In this document: positions 27,649 to 51,381 of the stretch, piece by piece | How positions within the stretch are numbered: the stretch's first letter is position 1 | How the letters are laid out: each line of letters opens with the position of its first letter | DNA from: Planctomycetota bacterium | GTDB lineage: Bacteria; Planctomycetota; PLA2; JAEUHO01 | Assembly (NCBI GenBank): GCA_965223505.1 | Contig: CBDCWP010000024.1 | Coordinates: 95,094 to 159,093, forward strand | Length of the DNA stretch: 64,000 nt | Direction of reading: 5' to 3' | The notes under the pieces: model-generated | Told to the model about the DNA's origin: nothing | Seen by the model: the letters and a program-made list of their open reading frames with translations, nothing else | Databases searched by the model: none | Made by a program: the position numbers and the translations under genes

Positions 27649-28785
27649 ATGCTTCGCGCGCTTCCGTTGCTGGTGCTCGTCCTGGCCGCTCCCGCGTGGG
27701 CGGACGGCGAGGAACCGAAGGACGAGCCGTCGGAGCCGCCGGCCGTCGTCAGCGCCGGCCATCGCTTCCTCTCGGTCGACCGCGTGGAGCACGACTTCGG
27801 CATCGCGAAGCAGCGCGAGCAGCTCGATACCGAGTTCACGCTGACGAACACGTCGACGGAGAGGCTCGAGCGCATCCGGGTGCGGGCCGACTGCGGCTGC
27901 AACGCGGTCGAGCTCGCCGACACGGCGCTCGAGCCGGACGCATCGACGACGCTGAAGGTCGGGTTCGCGACGGGCACGCTCAGCGGCACGCTTCTGAAGA
28001 AGGTGCGCATCGAAGCCGGCGACCCTGACCTGGGCACGGCGATCCTGCGATTGCGGATCTCCGTCGTCGCGGGCGTGGTGCTGGCCCCCGGCGCGGCGAT
28101 GTTCGGGGACGTGCTGCATGGCACGCTGCCGGAGAAGACGGTCGCGGTGAAGTGGCGCCACGGTGTCGGCGAGCCCTTCGAGATCACGGAGGTCGTCGTC
28201 CCGGGCCACGAGGACGGCTTCGACGTCGCGGTCAGCAAGCTCGCCCCGTCTGCCGACAGCCCGTGGCGCGGCTGGAACGTCTCGCTGCGGTTCAAGCAAC
28301 CACCGCCGATCGGGGTGTTTTCCGCGGAGGTGCTGGTGCGAACGTCGCACCCGGACGAGGCGTTTCGACGCCTCACCTTCGCGTTGAACGCAAATGTCTG
28401 CGGGAAGGTATGGATGCAGGCGCGCACGCTCACGTTTCACAACGTGGTGCGGGGCAAGGAGCGCTCGGCCAGCTTGACCTTCCGGCCCTTCGACGCGTCG
28501 ATCCGGTTCGGCGAGGTCTCGGCGCGCTCACGTCGCATCGTCGAGGTCGAGCGTGAAGACGGAACCGTCGTCGAGAACGTCGTCGCCGGCCGCACGCGGG
28601 TGAAGGTCGAGCCGGATCCGCATCACGCGGAGAAGCGCTACTGGCGGCTCACGGTGACGGTTCCCGCCGACGCGGAGCCCGGCCGGCTCAACGGCGAGTG
28701 GGTCGAGCTCCGGACGGGCATTCCGGATCAAGAGGAGATTCGCGTCGCGATCAAGGGCCGTGTGCGAGAGGCTCGCGATGGCTAA
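27649..28785 (+). CDS. Secreted DUF1573 domain protein, paralog of the upstream gene
   Basis: HDFG...ADCGC...LEP motif; collinear similarity to 26554-27612. Confidence 0.8.
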   Translation: MLRALPLLVLVLAAPAWADGEEPKDEPSEPPAVVSAGHRFLSVDRVEHDFGIAKQREQLDTEFTLTNTSTERLERIRVRADCGCNAVELADTALEPDASTTLKVGFATGTLSGTLLKKVRIEAGDPDLGTAILRLRISVVAGVVLAPGAAMFGDVLHGTLPEKTVAVKWRHGVGEPFEITEVVVPGHEDGFDVAVSKLAPSADSPWRGWNVSLRFKQPPPIGVFSAEVLVRTSHPDEAFRRLTFALNANVCGKVWMQARTLTFHNVVRGKERSASLTFRPFDASIRFGEVSARSRRIVEVEREDGTVVENVVAGRTRVKVEPDPHHAEKRYWRLTVTVPADAEPGRLNGEWVELRTGIPDQEEIRVAIKGRVREARDG

Positions 28786-29281
28786 GGGCGCCGTCCCCGA
28801 GAGCAGCGCGCGACGCAAGCGCGAACGCAAGAAGAGCAACGCCAAGCTCTGGGCGTTCATCTGGGTCAACGGGCTGCTGTTGGGCGCCGGCATCTGGTTC
28901 TACATGCAGCCGCAGCACGTCAAGGACAACGTGCTCGGGCTGTTCGGCGAAGGCTGGGAGGGCCGGGCGGCACGCGTCGGCGTCTGCGTGGTCCTGCTCT
29001 TCGTGCTGGCCAAGCTCGTCCTCCCCGGCATCTACGGAACGAAGGGCGGCCTCGAGCGCCTCCTGCATCGCATGCAGTCGCGCAAGCTGCCTGTGCGCAT
29101 CGCGCTGTTTCCCTTGGAAGCGATCGTGTGGTTGTTCTGGTTCGGATTCTGGATCCTCTTCGCACTCGACGCCGTGTTGATCCTCGCCACGTGTGCGCTG
29201 TTGATCCTGCTCGTCGTCCGGATCGTGAATCCGGCGTTCATGGCGGAGTTCGCCGAGAAGTATCCGTGGCTGACGGGCTGA
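28778..29281 (+). CDS. Hypothetical multi-TM membrane protein
   Basis: Basic N-terminus and 3-4 hydrophobic segments; overlaps the upstream stop. Confidence 0.7.
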   Translation: MAKGAVPESSARRKRERKKSNAKLWAFIWVNGLLLGAGIWFYMQPQHVKDNVLGLFGEGWEGRAARVGVCVVLLFVLAKLVLPGIYGTKGGLERLLHRMQSRKLPVRIALFPLEAIVWLFWFGFWILFALDAVLILATCALLILLVVRIVNPAFMAEFAEKYPWLTG

Positions 29282-38952: not shown

Positions 38953-41088
38953 TCAGGACCCCAATGGCTTCAGCGGATGGCGGTCGATCCCGCCTTTCGA
39001 CGGCGCCTCGAGCTCCAAGGTTCCTTGCGGATAGGGCCCCAACACGATGCCGGCCGGCGGAAACACCTCCATGTAGATCTGCGAGCCGCTGGGGCGCACG
39101 AAGAACACCGGCAGCTCGCCCCATTCGTGCAGGAGTCGCGCACCCCGCATGTCGCGCGTCTCGACCTCGGGCATCTTGCGCATGGTTCCCTTCGCGAGCC
39201 GGATCGTCACGTCGGTGCGCTCCCCGTCGCGCACCCAGCTCCCGTGGGCGGCGCCGCACTCCGACGTCGCGCTCCGGAAGGGGACGACGTACACGTCGTG
39301 CTCGCCTTGCGAGAGCGAGATGATCGAGACGTGGCCGTCCGCGACGCGGTGGCGTCCGCGCGTTCGCCAGACCGGAATGCGGTGCGTGTGCGATCGCCAG
39401 AACACGAAGACCTCGGTGCCGTCGGGGAGACGCGTCCCGTCGGTCGCGACGATCTCGAGGCGCATCGACCCGATGCCTTCCTTGGGCCGAAGTGTCGCGG
39501 TGAGCTCGAGCTCTTCTCCGAAGTCCGTGACGCGCACGCCCTCGATCGTGGCCGTCTCGTGCGCAGGCGAGTGCAGTTGGACGTCGTACACGCCGGGTGG
39601 CAGGCGCCGATCGACGACGATGGTGCCGTCCAACTGCATGCCGGCATGAACGGGCAGCGCCGCGAACGGATCTTCCGTCTGCACCATGGCCGAGACGGGC
39701 ATGTCGCCGGGTTTCCAGTTCTCGATGCGAATGCGGATCACGGCCGAGCGGTCGAGGTGCAGGTCGATCTCGCGCTCGTGAGGTTGCACGACACGCTCGG
39801 CCGCGACGAGACGTTCGGCGTTCGCCCGCACGCGGAAGGCGCGTCGTGTCGCAAGTCGGAACCGGCATACGCCGTTGGCGTCCGTCCGGAGCGAACGCGG
39901 GTAGAACGACGCGTCCTCCGGACGGGGCCACGCCCGAATCGACTCAGGGTCCATCGGCATGATCGCGACCTGAACGCGTTCCTTCGCATGTCCTTCCGGC
40001 ACGTGGACGCGGATCACGCGCTCGGGTGCCTTACGCAGCACGAGCTCGATGTCCTTGCCGGGCACGAGTGCGTCGCCGTCCACGAACGCCCTGTGCCACT
40101 GCGGATGCGTCGGTGCGCGCGCGGCGACCCAGTGCCCCTCGATCGACGCCATCTCGAAGGCGAAGGCGCCGGTCTCGTCTGCGCTCACCCGCCGCTCGGG
40201 CGGAAGGTGCATCGGAGCGTCCTTCGCGACGACGTACACGCTCACCGGCCGTGGCAGCGTGCCCTCGGCGGCGACGACGCGTCCACGCCACCTGCCGGTC
40301 GCGGTCGCGCTCGCGGCGGCGACATCCACGGTCGACGACGCCGCGTCGATTCGCGTGCGCCCTTCGAGCTGCGCGGCCGGTGCGTCCTCGTCCGCCGCTT
40401 CGGTCTCGCCCTCGGCGTGAAGCTGCGGCGCGGGTTCGCGGTCCGTTGTGTCATCTCTTGCGGTGAGCTGCCAGCCGACGAACGCACCGCCGCCGACCAG
40501 CGCCAGCAGCACCGCCGCCCAACCCAGCTTCCATTTCGACGCGGCCATGCCACCTCCCAGCACACTCTGCGGAACGAACGGCAAGAGGAGCAGTCGCCAC
40601 GTGCGCCCGTCGCCGTGTGCGCGGTCGAGCTCCGTGCGTAGCAGCTCCAGCCCGCGGTGCACGCGCGTGCGAACCGTCGCGATCGCGATGCCTTGCTCGC
40701 GCGCGATCGCCGCCGCGCTGCGGCCCGCGAAGTAGCGCAGCCACAGCGTCGTGCGAAACGGTTCCCCCACGCGCTTCAGTGCCTCGGCAACGCGCCGTTG
40801 TTCGTCGATGTGCGCCGCCGTCTCGTCGGGACGCGGCGCGGGCGAAGGCGACAACGCGCGCTCTTCGCGCCGCTGTCGACGCGACTCGGCTCGGTTGCGC
40901 TCGCGCGCGCGGTTGCGCAGTACGCCGCGCAGCCACGCCATCGCCGGAAGCCCGCCATTCCTCAGGGCCACCACGAAGGTGTCCTGGACCAGATCGTCGG
41001 CGGCGTGAGGATCGCGTACGAGCGCGCGAGCCAGTCGCCGCAGGCCCTGGGCCTGTCGATCCAAGCGGGCGGCGTCGTACGCGTTCAC
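38953..41088 (-). CDS. ECF sigma factor fused to TM helix and extracytoplasmic beta-sandwich (carboxypeptidase-regulatory-like) repeats
   Basis: Sigma2 ADDLVQDTF...WL; sigma4 IAREQGIAIATVRTRVHRG; TM LLALVGGGAFVGW; GGAGG RBS. Confidence 0.88.
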   Translation of the reverse strand: MNAYDAARLDRQAQGLRRLARALVRDPHAADDLVQDTFVVALRNGGLPAMAWLRGVLRNRARERNRAESRRQRREERALSPSPAPRPDETAAHIDEQRRVAEALKRVGEPFRTTLWLRYFAGRSAAAIAREQGIAIATVRTRVHRGLELLRTELDRAHGDGRTWRLLLLPFVPQSVLGGGMAASKWKLGWAAVLLALVGGGAFVGWQLTARDDTTDREPAPQLHAEGETEAADEDAPAAQLEGRTRIDAASSTVDVAAASATATGRWRGRVVAAEGTLPRPVSVYVVAKDAPMHLPPERRVSADETGAFAFEMASIEGHWVAARAPTHPQWHRAFVDGDALVPGKDIELVLRKAPERVIRVHVPEGHAKERVQVAIMPMDPESIRAWPRPEDASFYPRSLRTDANGVCRFRLATRRAFRVRANAERLVAAERVVQPHEREIDLHLDRSAVIRIRIENWKPGDMPVSAMVQTEDPFAALPVHAGMQLDGTIVVDRRLPPGVYDVQLHSPAHETATIEGVRVTDFGEELELTATLRPKEGIGSMRLEIVATDGTRLPDGTEVFVFWRSHTHRIPVWRTRGRHRVADGHVSIISLSQGEHDVYVVPFRSATSECGAAHGSWVRDGERTDVTIRLAKGTMRKMPEVETRDMRGARLLHEWGELPVFFVRPSGSQIYMEVFPPAGIVLGPYPQGTLELEAPSKGGIDRHPLKPLGS

Positions 41089-41208
41089 GGCTCCTCCACC
41101 CTACCCATGGCCGCCGGGCGCCGATCCGTTCCCGGAAGCACCCCGGAAATCGCCGCTACCCTACCTGCCCTCGATCCACGGCTTCGTGACACGTACAGGT
41201 GGAGGTTC

Positions 41209-43638
41209 ATGTCCCTGGATCCGGCCCGCTACGACGCCGACACGCTCGAACGCCATCGCGACAGCATCCGGCGCGTCGCGCGGGGGCTCGTGCGCGACTA
41301 CGACCGCACGGAGGACGTCGCGCAGGAGACCGCGTTGCGTGCCCTGTCCGGCGAGGTCCGACCGCGCAAGAACGTGGGCGCGTGTCTCGCGGGGGTCGCC
41401 CGCAACGTCGCGTGCCGGCTGCTTCGCCGCGAAGCGGCGCGCCCGCGTGTCGAGTCCGCCGCCGCGCGTGACGAACCGCAGCCGTCGGTGCTCGACGCGC
41501 TGGCGCGGCTCGACGAGCAACGTCTCGTACTCGACGCCGTACGCAAGCTCCCGGATCCGTACCGATCCGCCGTCCTTCTGCGCTACATCGACGGACTGCC
41601 GCCGCGCGCGATCGCGCGCCGCCTGGGTTGTCCGGTCGAGACCGTGAAGAGCCACCTCAAGCGCGGGCTCGCGCGACTGCGCGAGACACTGGACGCACGC
41701 CACCACGGCAATCGTCGAGCCTGGCTCGCCGTCATGTTGCCGCTGGCCGACTGGGGACCGCTCGCCTCCTTGTCCACATCGTTCGGAGGCGTCATGGCAC
41801 AGGAAACAACCCGGAAGTTCGCACTCTCGACACTCGCGCTGCTGCTACTGGCGGGCGGCGCAACCTGGGGCGGATATGCGCTGTTCGGCGCGGACACGCC
41901 GTCGAAGAACGGGGCAGCGCCGCTGACGTCCGACCTCACGGGCGGCGCCGCGAGCGACGCCGAGCCCGCGCCGACGCTCTCGCGCCGCGACGGCGCCGGC
42001 GACATCGACACGTCGACCGGCGCGGCGACATCGCCCGGGGCGCAAACGGGCGCAGGCGCGGCCGGCGGCGACACGAGTGCGACGGGCGCGGCCGCGTCGT
42101 CGGGGGACGAAGAGAGCGCCCCGCCGCTCAAGCGGTTCGCGTACGTGCCGCCCGTGCGGCGCGCCCCGTTCAGCCTGCCGAGCGGCGATCAGGGCGGCGG
42201 CGGCATGGGCGCGACCGGGCATTGGCTGAAGTTCGGCCGCGGCGCCCCGCCGAAAGGCGACGCGACACTCGTCGTCACCGTTCGCGACGAGGAAGGCCTG
42301 CCGCTCGCGAATGCCCTCGTGCTGATCGGGCTGCGCGACATCATCGGCACGACGGGCGTGTCGTTCGGCGACCTGCGCAGGTTGGGCCGCACCGACGAGA
42401 ACGGCGTCGTGCGCGCGGAAGCGCTCACGGGCGGCGAGGTCGCGCTGGGCGCGGACTGGCACGGTCTGTTCTCGCCCCAGGGCTTCGACGCCCGCCACGC
42501 CGTGCCTGTCGCGATCCCCCATCGGGGGGAGCACGCCGTGACGTTGACGCTGCCGGTGCGCCGCAAACAGATGGCCACGGTGAAGGGCGTCGTCCGTGAC
42601 ACCGAGGGCGCGCCGATCTTCTCCGCAACGGCGTTCCTGGGAACACTGCAGGCGGGCACGCGGCGCGACGGCAGCTACACGATCACCGGACCGGTGGAAG
42701 GCGCGTTCGAACTGCGCTTCTCGTCGTGGGAGCACGCGACGAAGACCGTCGACGTCAAGGTCGAGCCGGGCGGGGTCGTCACGCAGGACGTCACGCTCGA
42801 GCACAAGAACGCAGGCGAGATCACGCTCAGCGGCGTCATCGTCGGCCCCGAAGGCGAGACGGTGCCGCACGCGACCGTGTACATCGGCATCGACTCGACG
42901 CACTCGACGCTTCGAACGATCAAGGCCGACGAGGAGGGTCGCTTCGTCTTCGAGAAGTTACCGGAGCGCGTGACGAAGGAGAGCATCACGATCATCGGGG
43001 ACGGCTGGCAGCAGGGGTACTCGCAGAAGCGCGCGACGTACGCCGAGGGGTTGCCGGACGGTTCCGACGTGCGCGTGCAGCTGATCTACGGCTACACGAA
43101 GGTCGTGATCGACGTGCGCGACGCCGACACGGACGATCCCGTCGAGCGCGTCGATCTGACGCTCGAGCGGCCGGATCCGACCGACTACCAGCGCGGGCAC
43201 CTCTTCTACGATCCGCGCATGCGCAAGCTGCGAGGCACGCTGGCGCCGGGCAGCTACCACGTCGTCCTGGACGCGCTGCATCACGCGTCGACCGAGTTCG
43301 ACCTCGACGTGCCGCGCCAGAAGGAGTACACGCACGTCGTCAAGCTCGCGCGCGTGTCGCCGGACTCGATCGACATCGCCCTCAACCTGATCGCGCGGGA
43401 GAGCGGGACCAAGAAACCGGTCACGCGCTGCAAGATCGTGGTCTCCGACGTCGTCGGCGACCGCGCGCTCTCGCGCCTCGAGCAACCGCGCGCGGACGGA
43501 CGCTACCGTCTGCCCGTGCCGTCGGGTCGGCGTCGCGTGCAGGTGACCGCGGAGGGCTACGCGCCGTACGACGAGATCGTCGACTTCGACCCGCTGGAGA
43601 TCGAGAAGGACCTCGTCGTGGAGCTCGTGCCGCGCTGA
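41209..43638 (+). CDS. ECF sigma factor fused to TM helix and carboxypeptidase-regulatory-like repeats
   Basis: EDVAQET; IARRLGCPVETVKSHLKRG; TM; GxVxDxxGxP repeats; GGAGG RBS at 41201. Confidence 0.9.
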   Translation: MSLDPARYDADTLERHRDSIRRVARGLVRDYDRTEDVAQETALRALSGEVRPRKNVGACLAGVARNVACRLLRREAARPRVESAAARDEPQPSVLDALARLDEQRLVLDAVRKLPDPYRSAVLLRYIDGLPPRAIARRLGCPVETVKSHLKRGLARLRETLDARHHGNRRAWLAVMLPLADWGPLASLSTSFGGVMAQETTRKFALSTLALLLLAGGATWGGYALFGADTPSKNGAAPLTSDLTGGAASDAEPAPTLSRRDGAGDIDTSTGAATSPGAQTGAGAAGGDTSATGAAASSGDEESAPPLKRFAYVPPVRRAPFSLPSGDQGGGGMGATGHWLKFGRGAPPKGDATLVVTVRDEEGLPLANALVLIGLRDIIGTTGVSFGDLRRLGRTDENGVVRAEALTGGEVALGADWHGLFSPQGFDARHAVPVAIPHRGEHAVTLTLPVRRKQMATVKGVVRDTEGAPIFSATAFLGTLQAGTRRDGSYTITGPVEGAFELRFSSWEHATKTVDVKVEPGGVVTQDVTLEHKNAGEITLSGVIVGPEGETVPHATVYIGIDSTHSTLRTIKADEEGRFVFEKLPERVTKESITIIGDGWQQGYSQKRATYAEGLPDGSDVRVQLIYGYTKVVIDVRDADTDDPVERVDLTLERPDPTDYQRGHLFYDPRMRKLRGTLAPGSYHVVLDALHHASTEFDLDVPRQKEYTHVVKLARVSPDSIDIALNLIARESGTKKPVTRCKIVVSDVVGDRALSRLEQPRADGRYRLPVPSGRRRVQVTAEGYAPYDEIVDFDPLEIEKDLVVELVPR

Positions 43639-43641
43639 CCG

Positions 43642-44916
43642 CTAGCGATCGCCCTTGGGGTCCTCGTTCGGCGGTTGGGCTTTTGGGTCGCTGCGCGAAG
43701 GCGTGATGGCGCCGGATGACGTGGGGAGACCGTCCACGGGGCTCGGCGTGGTCGGGTGATACGCCTTCGAGCCGCGCAACAGGAAAAGCAGCGCGAACGA
43801 CGTGCAGACCTGACGGTTCTCGAGGTCGATCTCGAAGAGCTTGTTCCGGCTGCTCGACTGCGTGCTCACCGGCCCCCAACCGCCGTCCTTCTTCTGCTTC
43901 CTCAGCAGCGTGCGCGCCCCCCGCTCGTACCAACGCACACCGCCGATCTCCTCGACGTTCGCGAAGATGCAGACCTTCTCGAGCGCGTAGAGGCCGTAGT
44001 AGGGGTTCCGGAAGTCGAACGTCAGCCCTTTCGCATCTTCGGTCGCGTCGAACTCCGCAAGGAATGCGGGCACATCGACCGCGAGCTTCTCCATGGCGGA
44101 CGCGCGCGCCTTGGCGATCCGCTTCAGCAGCGATTTCTTCGCCTTCGGATCGCGTTTCAGCGCCGCTTCCGCCAACAGCAGATTGGCGAGGCCCATGAAC
44201 GTGCCTTGCGGGTAGTGCCGCCCCGCGCCGCCCTTGCGCGGACCGTAGCCCCAACGCCCTCGGCTCTGCATCTTGGTGAAGCGCGTGCCGAGCCGCGTCC
44301 ACGCCTCGAGCGGGATCTCGGCGCCCGCGCGCTCCGACGCCCACAGCCCGAGCGCGCCGAACTGCGCGGTCGAGATGTTCACGGGCGGGCTCGCACCCGA
44401 TGACGACGTCTCGTACCCCCAGGAGCCCGCGCGCGACTGTCCGCGAACGAGCGCCGCCCCGAGCTGTTGGGCCGCGCGCTTCGGACCTGCGTCCGCCATG
44501 ATCAACATGGCGCCGATGCCGGCTTCGTAGGTTCGACTCGCCAGCTCGCGCCTGCGGTCGGATCCCGACTCGAACAGGAACGCCTTCGCCTTGGCGAAAG
44601 CGCGCGTGGCGGTCGGGGTGCCTGCATGACGCAGGGCCAACCCACAGAGCGCCGTGTACTCGACGCGACTCGGCCAGCCCTCGGCGGCTTTCGGGCTCGC
44701 CCCCCAACTCGACGCGTCGGGCGCGAACCCGCCGTCGGGGCGCTGCTGAGAAACCAGCCAGAGCACGCCGCGATCGATCGCGGTGTGGATCCGCTTGCGC
44801 AGCGCCGCGTCGATCCCCGCGGTCTTCAGCCGCGCCTCGGTGGCCTCGTAGTCGGCGCTCGCGGGCGCGCTGAGAAGCGCCAGCAACACGAGGATGAGGA
44901 GCAGCGGGCGAGCCAT
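43642..44916 (-). CDS. Secreted prenyltransferase/squalene-cyclase-repeat protein
   Basis: Signal peptide; AIDRGVLWL..QQRPDGGF, GSWGY, YGLYALEK, QKKDGGW, TSFALLFL motifs. Confidence 0.75.
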   Translation of the reverse strand: MARPLLLILVLLALLSAPASADYEATEARLKTAGIDAALRKRIHTAIDRGVLWLVSQQRPDGGFAPDASSWGASPKAAEGWPSRVEYTALCGLALRHAGTPTATRAFAKAKAFLFESGSDRRRELASRTYEAGIGAMLIMADAGPKRAAQQLGAALVRGQSRAGSWGYETSSSGASPPVNISTAQFGALGLWASERAGAEIPLEAWTRLGTRFTKMQSRGRWGYGPRKGGAGRHYPQGTFMGLANLLLAEAALKRDPKAKKSLLKRIAKARASAMEKLAVDVPAFLAEFDATEDAKGLTFDFRNPYYGLYALEKVCIFANVEEIGGVRWYERGARTLLRKQKKDGGWGPVSTQSSSRNKLFEIDLENRQVCTSFALLFLLRGSKAYHPTTPSPVDGLPTSSGAITPSRSDPKAQPPNEDPKGDR

Positions 44917-45025
44917 GGCTGCTAGGAACGCCGCCTGGACCTCTCCTAGACCCCCATTTCCAGGGGCCTGGGCCCCGCGCACGGGCCTTTTGTCCATTTC
45001 GTCGTTTTTTGTCCTGATTTTTATC

Positions 45026-45054
45026 TGGACGATTATCACATGTTCGTCCATATT
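45026..45054 (+). promoter_or_regulatory. Sigma70-type promoter overlapped by a dyad operator
   Basis: TGGACG-N17-CATATT; inverted repeat TGGACGA-N11-TCGTCCA (45026-45050) in an AT-rich island. Confidence 0.6.
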
Positions 45055-45095
45055 CTTTTCTCAACAACGGAATCGGAACCAAGGAGTCCCAACCG

Positions 45096-46028
45096 ATGAA
45101 GTCTCCCCTCTTCTTCTCCCTCGCTCTTCTCGCCGCGTTCGGCCTGGCCCTTCCGACGGCCGTCGCCGACGACTGCGGCTCGTCCTGCACCGGCGACAAG
45201 GCCAAGAGGGCTTCCGCCGACATCGTCGACACCGCCGTCAGTGCGGGCTCGTTCAAGACGCTCGTCGCCGCGGTCAAGGCCGCCGGCCTCGTCGACACGC
45301 TCAAGGGTGACGGCCCGTTCACGGTCTTCGCGCCCACGGACGAGGCCTTCGCGAAGCTGCCCGACGGCACCGTCGAAGCGCTCCTGAAGGACAAGGAAGC
45401 ACTGACCAAGGTGCTGACCTACCACGTCGTGGCCGGCAAGGTCCCCGCTTCGGCCGTCGTGAACCTCGACTGGGCCGAGACCGTCCAGGGTCAGAGCCTG
45501 CACGTGCGCACCGAGAACGGCGCGGTCATGATCGACGACGCGAAGGTCGTCAAGGCCGACATCGAGACCTCGAACGGCATCATTCACGTGGTCGACACGG
45601 TGATCCTGCCCCGCAAGGACATCGTCGACACGGCGGTGAGCGCACGCTCGTTCGGTACGCTCGTCACGGCCGTGAAGGCTGCCGACCTCGTCGAGACGCT
45701 CAAGGGCAAGGGCCCGTTCACGGTGTTCGCGCCGACGGATGCCGCGTTCGCGAAGCTGCCTGCCGGCACCGTCGAGAGCCTGGTCGAGGACAAGCCGGCG
45801 CTGACGAACATCCTCACCTACCACGTCGTCCCCGGACGCGTCCTGAGCAAGGACCTCAAGGTCGGCACGACGCACGCCAAGACCGTGCAGGGCACCGACA
45901 TCACGATCGTTCGCACCAAGAGCGGTGAGGTCACGGTCAACGGCGCCAAGGTCACGAGCGCAGATGTGCTGGCGGGTAACGGAATCATCCACGTCATCGA
46001 CGCGGTGATTCTCCCCAGCCAGGAGTAG
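45096..46028 (+). CDS. Secreted double fasciclin (FAS1) domain protein
   Basis: Two copies of [15 protein letters not shown]...LTYHVV...NGIIHV.D; AAGGAG RBS. Confidence 0.95.
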
Positions 46029-47694: not shown

Positions 47695-50600
47695 GTGCGC
47701 GTCGTCTGGATCGGGATCGTGGTTGCGCTGGCGGCCGTCGCCGTCTGGTGGCTCGGCAGCGGCTCGACTGCCGGCGTCGACGACGATGTCGCTCGCGACG
47801 ACGGAGCGAACGAGACGGCGCGGGCCGGACTCGAAGGACGCGCGGACCCGCTCGTCGCCGACGCCGAAACCGCAACCGGCCCCGGGTCGGAAGCGGTTCG
47901 TGGGATCGTCGAGGACCTGGACGGCAATCCGCTCCCCGGCATGCGCGTCGAGCTTCATCGTCACATCGATCGCACCTTCTTGGAGGACCGCGCGGGCGCC
48001 TGGTTTCGTCCCGACCGCCTGGGGCACCCCGAACCGTACGAGCTTCTGACGACGACCGCGACGGGCGAGGACGGCCAGTTCGCGTTTCCCGGCCTGCCGA
48101 AGAGCGGTGTCGGGTACCAGGTGCGCGTGATCGCGAAGGCGCCCTGGTTCTCCGGCAGGCGTCACGCGAACGTCGGCTGGTACAACCGCTTCCTGCGCAT
48201 TCAGCTCGGCAAGGGCGCGCCGCTTCGCCTGCGCGTCGTCGACGCCGGCGGGCGGGGCCTTCAGGCCTTCGTGTCCGGGTACCGGCAGCGCGAAGGCGCG
48301 GGTTGGTTTCCGGCGAGCTTCGGTGAGATTCGTACGTCTCGCGACGGCCGCGCGTCCGTCGTGTTGCCGGACGGCGTGTTCCAGTGCAGCGTGACCGTGC
48401 CGGGCAAGGTGACGCGCTACGGCGTCATGGTCGAGACGCCCCAGTCGGGCGAGCTGCTCATTCCGGTCGGCATCGAGGGCGGCGCGTCGGTGGAAGGCTC
48501 CATCCGCGACACGTCGGGTGCGCCCGTGGCCGGCGCGCACGTGTACGTCGAGTCGGGCGGGCCGCACGAATCGCTCTCGCTCCTGACCCGGACCGCCGGC
48601 GACGGCAGCTATCGCGTGGACGGACTGCTGCCGATGAGCGTGCAGCGCGTGGCGGTGACCGCCGACGGCTACCTCACGATCGACAACGGCGCGCCCGGGC
48701 TCGCATTGCGACCCGGCCGCACGGCACGCGTGGACCTCACGATGGTGCGCGGCGGCGTGATCGAGGGAACGGTGCGCGGGGCCGACGGCCGCGCCATCGC
48801 GGGCGCACAGGTCCAGGCGCGCGCGGAGCACACGCGACAGGGCTTCGTGGGGATCGATCGCGCCGTCACCGACCGCGACGGCCGGTATCGGATGTCGCAC
48901 GTGCCGTTGGGCGGCGGCCACGTCCTCGCGTCGGCGCTCGGCTACTTCGAACGCGAGACCAAGGGAACCTGGTACGTGATCGACGGCGAGTCGGATCGGA
49001 AGACGATCGACATCACGTTGCTGCGGGGGATTCCCGTCCACGGGCGCGTCGTCGACGCGTACGGCGACCCCGTCGCCCACGCCTCGGTCACCGTCAACGG
49101 TGTCGTGTCGTCGGGCTGGTGGAATCAGGATGCGCGCATGCGCGTCGTCACGACGGACGCGCACGGGCGCTTCGCGTACCCGGGGCTGCCACCCGGCGAC
49201 AGCTGGAAGCTGACGGCCACGACCGCGTCGTCGACGTCCCCGCCGGTGTCCGTACGCACGGCCATGGACACCGAGCCGCCTGCGCCGGTCGAGCTGGTGC
49301 TTCGGAGAACGGCCGTCGTCGAAGGCCGCGTGGCGCTCGAAGCCGATGCATCGCGCCACCGCTTGCGAGCGCATGCGCGGGCCGAGGACGGCGCGAACCA
49401 GACGACGGCCGTCCTCGCGGACGGCACCTTCCGCTTGACCGGCCTCCAACCGGGCGCGTACGAGATCTACGTCGTCGACTGGTACATGGATGCGGTGTCG
49501 GAGAAGCAGGACCTGACCGTCGACTGGGGGCAGGTGGTCAAGGACGTCTCGCTGGACCTGCTCGCGCGGCACGTGATCGCGGGCGTCGTCGTGGACGAGG
49601 ACGGCGAACCGATTCCCGAGCTTCGACTGTCGCTCGACATCAGCACGCCGACGAACGGGCGCTCGCTGTCGGCGGACACCAACCGCCGCGGGCGGTTCGT
49701 CTTCACGAGCGTTCCGGACACGGGATTCTCGTTCACGATCTCGATCGACGACGAGCGCAAGCCGGGTGTGTTCAAGCCTGGCGACACGGACGTTCGGTTG
49801 CAACACCGTTCGCGAAAGCGGTTGCACTTCGAAGGCGAGGTCCATCTGCCCGACGGCTCCCCCGCCGTGTCGGGCAGCGTGACGATCTGGGAGGTCGCGC
49901 CGGCGCGCGGGCCCCATCAGTCCGGGCGTCGCAACGGCCGTGCCGTGCCGGTCTTCAACGGCGCGTTCGGTACGGTGATCGAGCAGCGATCGCCGGACGC
50001 GAGATACCACGCCGAGGTGCGCGAGGTCTTCGACGCGGTCGGGAAGATGATCAGCATCCGGCCCGCCAAGGTCGAGAACGTCGAGCCCGACACGCCGATC
50101 ACGTTCCATCTCGTCGCCGGACACGAGCTGTCTGGCGTCGTCGTCGACGACGAGGGCGCACCGGTGGCCGACGTACGCGTGTCGATCCGGATGAAGGACG
50201 CCGAGACCGACTTCCACCGCAAGAACATGCAGACGCGTCCCGACGGCACGTTCTGGTTCGGATCGATCTCGCCCGGTGCGATCGAGGTCAAGGTCGAGCG
50301 GCTGCGGCCGCCCTGGATCGCGCCGCCGCCCCTGACGGTCGAGGCGGGCGACGAGGACGTGCGCATCACGCTCGTGCGCGGCGGGACCGTTCGCGGCATC
50401 GTGCGCGGGCCGGACGGCAAGCCCGTGCAAGGCGCCGATGTCCGTTGGCACGGGGGCCTGAACACGTCCGTCGGTGCGCAGACGGATGAAGCAGGACGCT
50501 TCGAGCTGTTCCCGATTGCACCGGAGACGGAGAGCTCCGTCACGGTGACCCCGCCGGAGAGCAACCCGCCGATGATGGGCCGGGTCGAACACGGCGTTCG

Positions 50601-51381
50601 CGCCGGCACGGACGATGTCGAGCTGCGACTCGACGTCGGCGCGTACATCGAGGGCGAGATCGCCGGCCCGGACGGAGAGGACGTGCCGCACGTGTGGCTG
50701 TGGGCGCACGCAGCGTCGACGCCGCAACAAGGCGGCTATCACGCACAGGCGCGCGACAAGCGCTTCAAGCTCGGGCCGCTGCCGCCGGGCCGGTATCTCG
50801 TCCGGATGCAAGTGTCGGGCGGCGACTTCGTGGCACCGGACCCGCTCGAGATCGAAGCGCCGGCGAGCGACGTGCGGATCGTCGTCCCGAAGGGGCGCAC
50901 GATCACAGGGACGCTCTCGGGCGCGTCGAACCTGGATCGCTACACGCTGGTGTTCATGCGCCTGACCCCCGACGGCCCGGTCGGGATGGGCGGCGGCGTA
51001 ACCGCGTCCGGTCAGTTCCAGGTGACGCTGAAGGACGATGCGCCCGGCACGCTCTTCGTGATGAGCTACCAGGACGAAGCCGGGCTCTACGCGCTGGCCG
51101 AGAACGTACGTCCGTCCTCGACGCCGTTGACGTTGACGCTGCGGCAAGGCGCGACGATCGAAGGCCGCTTCGACCAATACGAAGCGAGCGAGCAGGGGTA
51201 TGTCTACGTGCAGGCGGCCAACGGCGTGAACGTCGGCGCCACTGCCGCGGAGGACGGTTCCTTCGTCATCCGCAGCCTGCCGCCGGGCGCCTACGACCTG
51301 CATGCGTCGCGCTCGCGTCAGGCGCTTGCCCCCATGCGGGTGAAAGCCGGCACGCGGGACCTCCTGCTCGGAAAGCCCTAG
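47695..51381 (+). CDS. Membrane-anchored protein with many carboxypeptidase-regulatory-like repeats
   Basis: N-terminal TM; about 10 GxVxDxxGxP(V/I)xGAxV...TDxxGxF repeats; GGAGG-N4-GTG start. Confidence 0.88.
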   Translation: MRVVWIGIVVALAAVAVWWLGSGSTAGVDDDVARDDGANETARAGLEGRADPLVADAETATGPGSEAVRGIVEDLDGNPLPGMRVELHRHIDRTFLEDRAGAWFRPDRLGHPEPYELLTTTATGEDGQFAFPGLPKSGVGYQVRVIAKAPWFSGRRHANVGWYNRFLRIQLGKGAPLRLRVVDAGGRGLQAFVSGYRQREGAGWFPASFGEIRTSRDGRASVVLPDGVFQCSVTVPGKVTRYGVMVETPQSGELLIPVGIEGGASVEGSIRDTSGAPVAGAHVYVESGGPHESLSLLTRTAGDGSYRVDGLLPMSVQRVAVTADGYLTIDNGAPGLALRPGRTARVDLTMVRGGVIEGTVRGADGRAIAGAQVQARAEHTRQGFVGIDRAVTDRDGRYRMSHVPLGGGHVLASALGYFERETKGTWYVIDGESDRKTIDITLLRGIPVHGRVVDAYGDPVAHASVTVNGVVSSGWWNQDARMRVVTTDAHGRFAYPGLPPGDSWKLTATTASSTSPPVSVRTAMDTEPPAPVELVLRRTAVVEGRVALEADASRHRLRAHARAEDGANQTTAVLADGTFRLTGLQPGAYEIYVVDWYMDAVSEKQDLTVDWGQVVKDVSLDLLARHVIAGVVVDEDGEPIPELRLSLDISTPTNGRSLSADTNRRGRFVFTSVPDTGFSFTISIDDERKPGVFKPGDTDVRLQHRSRKRLHFEGEVHLPDGSPAVSGSVTIWEVAPARGPHQSGRRNGRAVPVFNGAFGTVIEQRSPDARYHAEVREVFDAVGKMISIRPAKVENVEPDTPITFHLVAGHELSGVVVDDEGAPVADVRVSIRMKDAETDFHRKNMQTRPDGTFWFGSISPGAIEVKVERLRPPWIAPPPLTVEAGDEDVRITLVRGGTVRGIVRGPDGKPVQGADVRWHGGLNTSVGAQTDEAGRFELFPIAPETESSVTVTPPESNPPMMGRVEHGVRAGTDDVELRLDVGAYIEGEIAGPDGEDVPHVWLWAHAASTPQQGGYHAQARDKRFKLGPLPPGRYLVRMQVSGGDFVAPDPLEIEAPASDVRIVVPKGRTITGTLSGASNLDRYTLVFMRLTPDGPVGMGGGVTASGQFQVTLKDDAPGTLFVMSYQDEAGLYALAENVRPSSTPLTLTLRQGATIEGRFDQYEASEQGYVYVQAANGVNVGATAAEDGSFVIRSLPPGAYDLHASRSRQALAPMRVKAGTRDLLLGKP

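Follow-up and report, generated by a model that had tools for sequence, protein, structure and literature searches.

The window analysed here is a stretch of 64,000 nucleotides from a Planctomycetota bacterium (assembly GCA_965223505.1, contig CBDCWP010000024.1, positions 95,094 to 159,093) that contains two divergently transcribed genes, ECF1 and ECF2, separated by an intergenic region of 120 bp (41089-41208). In each of them an extracytoplasmic function (ECF) sigma domain, a transmembrane (TM) helix and an extracytoplasmic domain are encoded in a single open frame, and in each the junction between sigma region 4 (sigma-4) and the TM helix carries a Shine-Dalgarno (SD) sequence followed by an in-frame ATG. 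These internal start signals, and the sigma-less membrane proteins that they may produce, are the subject of this report. The source genome comprises 5.15 Mb in 44 contigs with a G+C content of 67%, and the features of the window are collected in Table 1.

Two sigma fusion genes with matching junctions

ECF1 and ECF2 are ECF (group 4) sigma-70 factors. Pfam matches were obtained to Sigma70_r2 (ECF1 residues 14-70, 28.0 bits with a cut-off of 24; ECF2 residues 14-76, 28.5 bits) and to Sigma70_r4_2 (ECF1 residues 111-150, 29.1 bits with a cut-off of 25.7; ECF2 residues 105-157, 57.3 bits), and no match to Sigma70_r1 or Sigma70_r3 was found in either protein at E ≤ 0.01. The C-terminal part of ECF2 matches CarboxypepD_reg at 85 bits and that of ECF1 at 29.5 bits, which is under the cut-off of 32.3 bits. 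In an AlphaFold2 (AF2) model of the N-terminal 218 residues of ECF1, sigma-2 and sigma-4 are confident, and the predicted local distance difference test score (pLDDT) falls below 50 over fragment residues 176-187 (protein residues 177-188), which span the G-G-G-M of the junction. Judging from this low score, the peptide at the ECF1 junction is under no strong structural constraint.

Table 1. Positions in the window of the two fusion genes, their junction elements and a related stand-alone gene (aa, amino acids; ORF, open reading frame).
Feature	Position	Strand	Remarks
ECF1, sigma-TM-beta-sandwich fusion gene, full length	38953..41088	-	711 aa, GTG start, from ORF list
ECF2, sigma-TM-CarboxypepD_reg fusion gene, full length	41209..43638	+	809 aa, ATG start, from ORF list
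GGAGG at ECF1 own start	41093..41097	-	4 nt ahead of GTG 41086-41088, read from sequence
GGAGG at ECF2 own start	41201..41205	+	3 nt ahead of ATG 41209, read from sequence
Linker motif after sigma-4, ECF1	40579..40605	-	R-x-W-x-x-L-L-x-P type, residues 162-170, conserved columns in paralog alignment A1
Linker motif after sigma-4, ECF2	41716..41745	+	R-A-W-L-A-V-M-L-P-L, residues 170-179, paralog alignment A1
Internal SD GGAGG, ECF1	40553..40557	-	Gly178 (GGA) and Gly179 (GGT)
Internal in-frame ATG, ECF1	40546..40548	-	Met181, proposed start of sigma-less isoform
Internal SD GGAGG, ECF2	41785..41789	+	Gly193 (GGA) and Gly194 (GGC)
Internal in-frame ATG, ECF2	41794..41796	+	Met196, proposed start of sigma-less isoform
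TM helix, ECF1	40471..40527	-	residues ~188-206, hydropathy maximum; helix 185-212 in AF2 model
TM helix, ECF2	41818..41874	+	residues ~204-222, hydropathy maximum
Proposed sigma-less ECF1 product	38953..40548	-	predicted 531 aa: short Lys-containing N-terminus, TM helix, linker, beta-sandwich region
Proposed sigma-less ECF2 product	41794..43638	+	predicted 614 aa
Stand-alone gene with short-isoform architecture	47695..51381	+	1228 aa, N-terminal TM, acidic linker, 9 CarboxypepD_reg stretches, no sigma part

The junction codons read CTG GGA GGT GGC ATG in ECF1 and TTC GGA GGC GTC ATG in ECF2, with 4 nt between GGAGG and ATG in both genes, and within either gene the junction ATG is the sole in-frame start codon with a GGAGG 3-10 nt upstream. 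Re-reading the sequence placed both motifs exactly where a preliminary description of this DNA had put them, at a shared G-G-x-M position between sigma-4 and the TM helix (M181 and M196). The same description had remarked that GGA is used at the junctions in spite of a dominance of GGC, and this was borne out by the genome-wide shares of the two codons among Gly codons (9.3% GGA vs 63% GGC in 2967 ORF calls). It had also likened the junction spacing to that of the gene starts at 41088, 41209 and 47695, and a GGAGG indeed lies 4, 3 and 4 nt upstream of these, respectively.

The ORFs used for the genome background were picked by G+C content at third codon positions, a crude choice, and ECF1 is absent from the set. 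GGA was the first codon in 366/7580 (4.8%) of their Gly-Gly pairs, and GGA-GGN-NNN-ATG occurred 14 times inside ORFs, mostly as real starts within over-extended ORFs; one of the 14 interior sites belongs to a third member of the ECF1/ECF2 gene family. The 3' tail of the 16S rRNA of the source genome contains CCTCC. Genome-wide, the spacer after GGAGG peaks at 5-7 nt, with 4 nt being common (33 candidate starts) and 3 nt rare (5), and the 4-nt spacer is also present at 5' starts of sigma-fusion family genes. The 5' starts of ECF1 and ECF2 both have GGTGGAGG with just 3-4 nt to the start codon, and three further paralogs of the genome (C31 twice, C14) have similarly short 5' spacing. A scan of positions 40300-42100 returned no promoters and no terminators, a result that neither supports nor opposes an internal promoter.

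The junction signal is conserved and selected at the nucleotide level

The source genome contains 23 paralogs in which a sigma domain is joined to a TM helix, plus one frameshifted copy. A junction was scored as positive when an SD core (GGAG or GAGG) lay 4-10 nt before an in-frame start codon in the segment from codon TM-16 to TM+6, with the TM helix set by hydropathy and, for the paralogs, ATG and GTG accepted as start codons. Seventeen of the 23 paralogs were positive and in an 18th a matching SD and start lie just beyond the edge of the segment, compared with an SD at 46/864 (5.3%) of the in-frame ATG/GTG codons located elsewhere in these paralogs. GGA made up 26/74 of the Gly codons in the junction segment vs 217/1788 elsewhere (p = 6×10−7). 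Among the other genes of the source genome whose first TM helix lies 150 or more residues inside a coding-like region the signal was found in 5/113, which indicated that it does not accompany TM helices in general; these control genes showed no excess of GGA (29/217 vs 10% elsewhere) and no peak in SD density.

The paralog profile (A1) matched every genome searched among relatives (41/41, source genome included), with at most 70 matches per genome. Both the closest Atlas clusters and the names of the sources of homologs assign the family to Planctomycetota. An independent set of 127 homologs was assembled from 29 other genomes (48 homologs from the same family, 59 from the same order and 20 from other families) and scored by the criterion fixed on the source genome, widened solely to admit TTG starts; eight generic ECF loci from Proteobacteria metagenome-assembled genomes, obtained in a single-protein scan, were left out of the analysis. 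An in-frame junction SD and start was present in 83/127 homologs (58 ATG, 22 GTG and 3 TTG). The out-of-frame controls in the same segment gave 3/127 and 0/127, same-size segments elsewhere in the homolog ORFs gave 3042/42654 (7.1%), and other in-frame start codons of the homologs had an SD in 168/2750 cases (6.1%). At least one positive homolog was found in 26/29 genomes, and when the homologs were clustered at 60% identity 69/105 clusters contained a positive, indicating that the result was not carried by a few recent duplicates. In a phylum-wide draw the family was found in 35/151 genomes at E ≤ 1e-45, and in a third set of 22 new loci, drawn from as many additional Planctomycetota genomes of other families, 13/22 loci were positive and the share of GGA was 31/78 for junction Gly codons vs 233/1352. 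Chance as the origin of the junction signal was ruled out by the paralog, homolog and deep-TM gene controls.

The junction consensus reads G-G-h-h-M-(S/T)-x-K-x-K (h, hydrophobic) followed by the TM helix. One alternative is therefore that only the peptide matters, that is, that G-G-(hydrophobic)-(hydrophobic)-M forms a hinge or a protease site of the full-length protein and that the likeness to an SD comes from Gly-Gly. Conservation of the Gly and hydrophobic residues in the protein alignment agrees with this explanation, which is nevertheless very improbable because selection on the peptide leaves the codon choices unexplained. GGA makes up 159/400 (40%) of the junction Gly codons of the homologs vs 507/3983 (13%) of those elsewhere (p = 7×10−37). 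A Met is located near the TM helix in 83/127 homologs and is preceded by an SD in 57/83 cases, as compared with 19/480 for other internal Mets (odds ratio 53). The preliminary description had suggested looking for GGA enrichment at G-G-x-M in family members, and the outcome was clearly positive: the Gly four codons ahead of the junction Met is GGA in 42/52 cases vs 3/34 at other internal Mets, so that Gly codons at this site do not follow genome-wide usage. Where ATG is absent, a Val at the start position is encoded by GTG in 16/18 cases (background 40%, p = 2.5×10−5) and a Leu by TTG in 3/4 (background ~10%). Homolog L034 reaches the same SD through Glu-Gly (GAG GGG) in place of Gly-Gly. The low genome-wide share of GGA as first codon of Gly-Gly pairs and the low AF2 confidence in the G-G-G-M segment also argue against a mere peptide motif.

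A second alternative is that the junction is the scar of a gene fusion without present function, in which a sigma-2/sigma-4 cassette was inserted upstream of a signal-anchored gene whose old SD and start are still visible. Sigma cassettes of Planctomycetes have been proposed to duplicate and to capture adjacent DNA (Pinto and da Fonseca 2020, PMC7671368), the stretch after the junction ATG resembles a normal signal-anchor N-terminus, and the stand-alone gene beginning at 47695 has the same architecture. However, GGAG lies in the phase of the Gly codons at 85/87 junctions, whereas genuine starts of the source genome are distributed 25:23:19 over the three phases (p = 1×10−18), and T occupies the second position of the codons that separate the junction SD from the start, i.e. 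these codons encode hydrophobic residues. This phase lock and the second-position T indicate that the element was shaped inside a translated frame. In a neutral scar the rare GGA would drift to GGC, yet it is kept in 69/105 clusters below 60% identity, and the signal is retained in the ECF2 relatives L162 and L163, which have GGA GGN NNN ATG while being only 37-39% identical to ECF2 over the full length; at the junction of a further ECF2 relative, L161, the codons are GGA GGA ACG ATC GTG. A scar without function thus appears quite unlikely. A scar as the origin would be compatible with present use of the junction start, and capture of a downstream gene is a plausible way in which this start arose.

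Taken together, these comparisons showed at the level of sequence that the junction signal exists, is conserved and is selected as a nucleotide signal within the translated frame. Selection of this kind would also be seen if the signal acted in the mRNA as a programmed pause, with GGAG binding the anti-SD of elongating ribosomes before synthesis of the TM helix and with no second protein being made; such a pause might give the sigma domain time to fold or set the timing of membrane targeting. The motif keeps a constant distance to the TM helix that follows it, with a peak of SD-core density 6-10 codons before the helix, and SD use at ordinary starts is low (19%), both of which fit a pause. A pause needs no start codon, however, and the SD is coupled to an ATG, GTG or TTG at 5 or 8 nt: a start codon stands 3 or 4 positions past an in-frame GGA-G in 79/97 junction cases vs 25/152 elsewhere. 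The preference for GTG and TTG among the Val and Leu codons at the start position speaks against a pause as well, as does the rarity of the motif in the other genes with a deep first TM helix (5/113), and, by reasoning alone, a pause for targeting would come too early, with the TM helix not yet synthesised. We consider a pause unlikely.

Predicted products of the junction start

The explanation that we favour, at a probability of roughly 0.7, is that the junction is a selected internal translation start that yields, in addition to the full fusion, a membrane isoform lacking sigma. Each gene of the family encodes an ECF sigma part (sigma-2 and sigma-4), a short linker, one TM helix and an extracytoplasmic region, usually of CarboxypepD_reg repeats, and the coding sequence just upstream of the TM helix would double as a translation initiation region. 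This region consists of an SD (GGAG or GGAGG) using the rare GGA codon for Gly, an in-frame start codon 5 or 8 nt further on, mostly ATG and otherwise GTG or TTG, and a Lys-rich, A-rich, weakly structured stretch leading into the TM helix. Initiation at the 5' end of the gene would give the membrane-tethered sigma factor, and ribosomes that load at the junction would produce a type II membrane protein that lacks sigma, with a length of 531 aa in the case of ECF1 and 614 aa in that of ECF2. The mean folding energy of 40 nt is -7.1 kcal/mol at the junction vs about -13.5 kcal/mol in the flanks, with a G+C content of 0.58 vs 0.74, and the junction of ECF2 (-3.9 kcal/mol) is at the 99th percentile of the least-structured segments of that gene.

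Several observations weigh against an internal start. The signal was missing under our criterion in 44/127 homologs and in 9/22 loci of the third set, and the closest ECF1 relative in another genome (L158) has a GGAGG without a start codon behind it. Signal and start are also absent from both paralogs (2/2) in which an FGE-sulfatase domain replaces the CarboxypepD_reg repeats (L174, C30:29944-33843, and L180, C10:41697-44462), and whether a gene has the internal start may depend on the kind of extension that it carries. The junction of ECF1 is not unusually unstructured (67th percentile of its gene), and the low structure and A-richness seen in the family are in part due to the need for Lys, Thr and Ser codons in the juxtamembrane segment. 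The 4-nt spacer of ECF1 and ECF2 is at the short end of the range in the genome, the usual spacing in the family being longer, and internal loading would face competition from ribosomes already translating from the upstream start. A GGAG/GAGG core 4-10 nt upstream was found at only 84/441 (19%) near-unambiguous gene starts of the source genome, which indicated that SD-led initiation is not the rule there, and given this low use the conserved SD-like element could serve a purpose other than initiation. Finally, gene calls, TM positions and scored segments were obtained with simple scripts of our own. By a looser count an SD-like core lies near the candidate 5' start in 13/23 family genes. The junction SD is more frequent than the SD at ordinary starts of the source genome, an excess that could reflect a need for an SD within a structured, translated region or another role.

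The suggestion in the preliminary description that each gene makes a full fusion plus a sigma-less isoform is thus supported by the comparative evidence; two of the options that it had attached are not, since a pure scar is unlikely in view of the phase lock at 85/87 junctions and an anti-sigma role of the short form is unlikely because just ~7 of its residues, ahead of the TM helix, would face the cytoplasm. The short form may act as a decoy or an effector. As a tentative proposal, it may account for the bulk of the sensor or structural protein, with the sigma form as a minority that shares its TM helix and outer domain, the two forms competing or co-assembling and sigma being released by regulated proteolysis. 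More speculative still is the extension of this idea to a majority sigma-less envelope protein and a minority sigma-tethered copy from each gene, which would amount to dozens of 'self-reporting' genes per genome in which release of sigma adjusts transcription of the gene itself. Cleavage, ligand binding or misassembly of the envelope protein shared by the tethered copy would in that case free sigma, the product ratio would be set by the two ribosome-binding sites of one mRNA, and a single gene would provide sensor plus effector with no separate anti-sigma factor. Peptidase_M50 genes are present in the source genome, but given that the family was also found in 14/14 control genomes, their presence says little on sigma release by proteolysis.

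A split form of the fusion, with the sigma part ending before the junction, was not found with a 235-aa N-terminal query among 8000 scored candidates, which is not evidence of its absence. The query returned seven short proteins; all five that were read (5/5) extend beyond sigma-4 into the TM region, and two are labelled 'partial' at the source. A query for stand-alone relatives of the ECF2 short form gave just one protein besides that of the window itself, a fusion of 812 aa (P0009, 54% identical), in which A-G-G-L-M lies ahead of the TM helix. The stand-alone gene of the window that has the architecture of the short isoform (Table 1) encodes a short N-terminus and starts with GTG, 4 nt after its GGAGG. 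Two ORFs lie between the sigma fusions and this gene, at 43642-46028. By eye, the minus-strand ORF (469 aa) looks like a prenyltransferase-like repeat protein and the plus-strand ORF (310 aa) like a protein with two fasciclin domains.

Some further observations were made on the family and its controls. An R-x-W-x-x-A-L-x-P-L motif lies directly C-terminal of sigma-4 in most paralogs (alignment A1, columns ~175-190); AF2 gives short helices of middling confidence for it, and its role could lie in autoinhibition or docking. One of the positive deep-TM control genes (contig C39, plus strand, 251598-254943 in strand coordinates) has a similar G-A-L-L-V-K segment ahead of its TM helix and may represent a different type of fusion that shares this junction. 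In the frameshifted paralog (contig C41, minus-strand ORF 28263-29223 in strand coordinates) the break is between sigma-4 and the linker, and the TM helix and beta-sandwich, without a Met ahead of the helix, are encoded in the +1 frame; this copy is a pseudogene or else the product of an error in the assembly.

Relation to known systems

Membrane-tethered sigma fusions that carry an anti-sigma-like domain are known from IutY and from the groups ECF48, ECF52 and ECF53 (PMC8999054, PMC7826278). Hybrid sigma/anti-sigma ECF proteins with a C-terminal TM extension include IutY of Pseudomonas putida (ECF243) and SCO4117 of Streptomyces coelicolor (ECF52), and hybrids of this kind are activated by regulated proteolysis (PMC8999054). 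Like IutY and SCO4117, ECF1 and ECF2 combine an ECF sigma factor, a single-pass TM helix and an extracytoplasmic sensing domain in one polypeptide. In the IutY/ECF52 type a recognisable FecR-like or zinc-finger anti-sigma domain lies between sigma-4 and the TM helix, whereas no Pfam match to an anti-sigma domain of the FecR or zinc-finger/RsrA type was obtained in ECF1, ECF2 or 20 paralogs scanned, and the linker from the Pfam end of sigma-4 to the TM helix is ~37-46 residues long in ECF1 and ECF2. The outer domain also differs, since the ECF1/ECF2 family, unlike IutY and SCO4117, has CarboxypepD_reg repeats. A term search of PMC5411451 gave no mention of an internal start in IutY.

The C-terminal extensions of ECF proteins in Planctomycetes have been described as arising by duplication and insertion of a sigma-2/sigma-4 cassette, and in one of the capture scenarios an in-frame downstream gene is sequestered (Pinto and da Fonseca 2020, PMC7671368). 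In the abstract and main-text passages of that study covered here, neither a conserved junction SD and start nor a second product is described. Its proteins resemble the family studied here in that they belong to the same phylum, have many paralogs per genome and combine conserved sigma regions with fast-evolving extensions.

In nested in-frame genes an internal SD and start within a longer ORF give rise to a C-terminal isoform, as proposed here for ECF1 and ECF2. Internal in-frame initiation is a known kind of gene organisation with textbook cases. Examples are Cas11b, which is made by internal in-frame translation (PMC11899642), and the internal starts found by retapamulin profiling of E. 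coli (bioRxiv 10.1101/520783). As with such genes, the SD in ECF1 and ECF2 is at a working distance from the start, and SD and start are conserved beyond what the protein needs. None of these examples is known to be a sigma factor or to extend family-wide over dozens of paralogs per genome, and no description of an internal start in sigma fusions was found in full-text searches of the literature. The junction start in sigma fusions would thus be a combination of two known kinds, tethered sigma fusions and internal in-frame initiation, that is undescribed in the literature found.

Membrane-extended ECF fusions are common in Planctomycetota, with up to 70 matches per genome, and the junction start bears on how ECF fusions are regulated without an anti-sigma factor. 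If the favoured explanation is true, genes that are read as one protein encode two, the stoichiometry of tethered sigma to free sensor is written into the mRNA and the annotation of such sigma fusions changes. The family would also provide a clear comparative case of dual coding, with a translated frame that at the same time preserves a ribosome-binding site.

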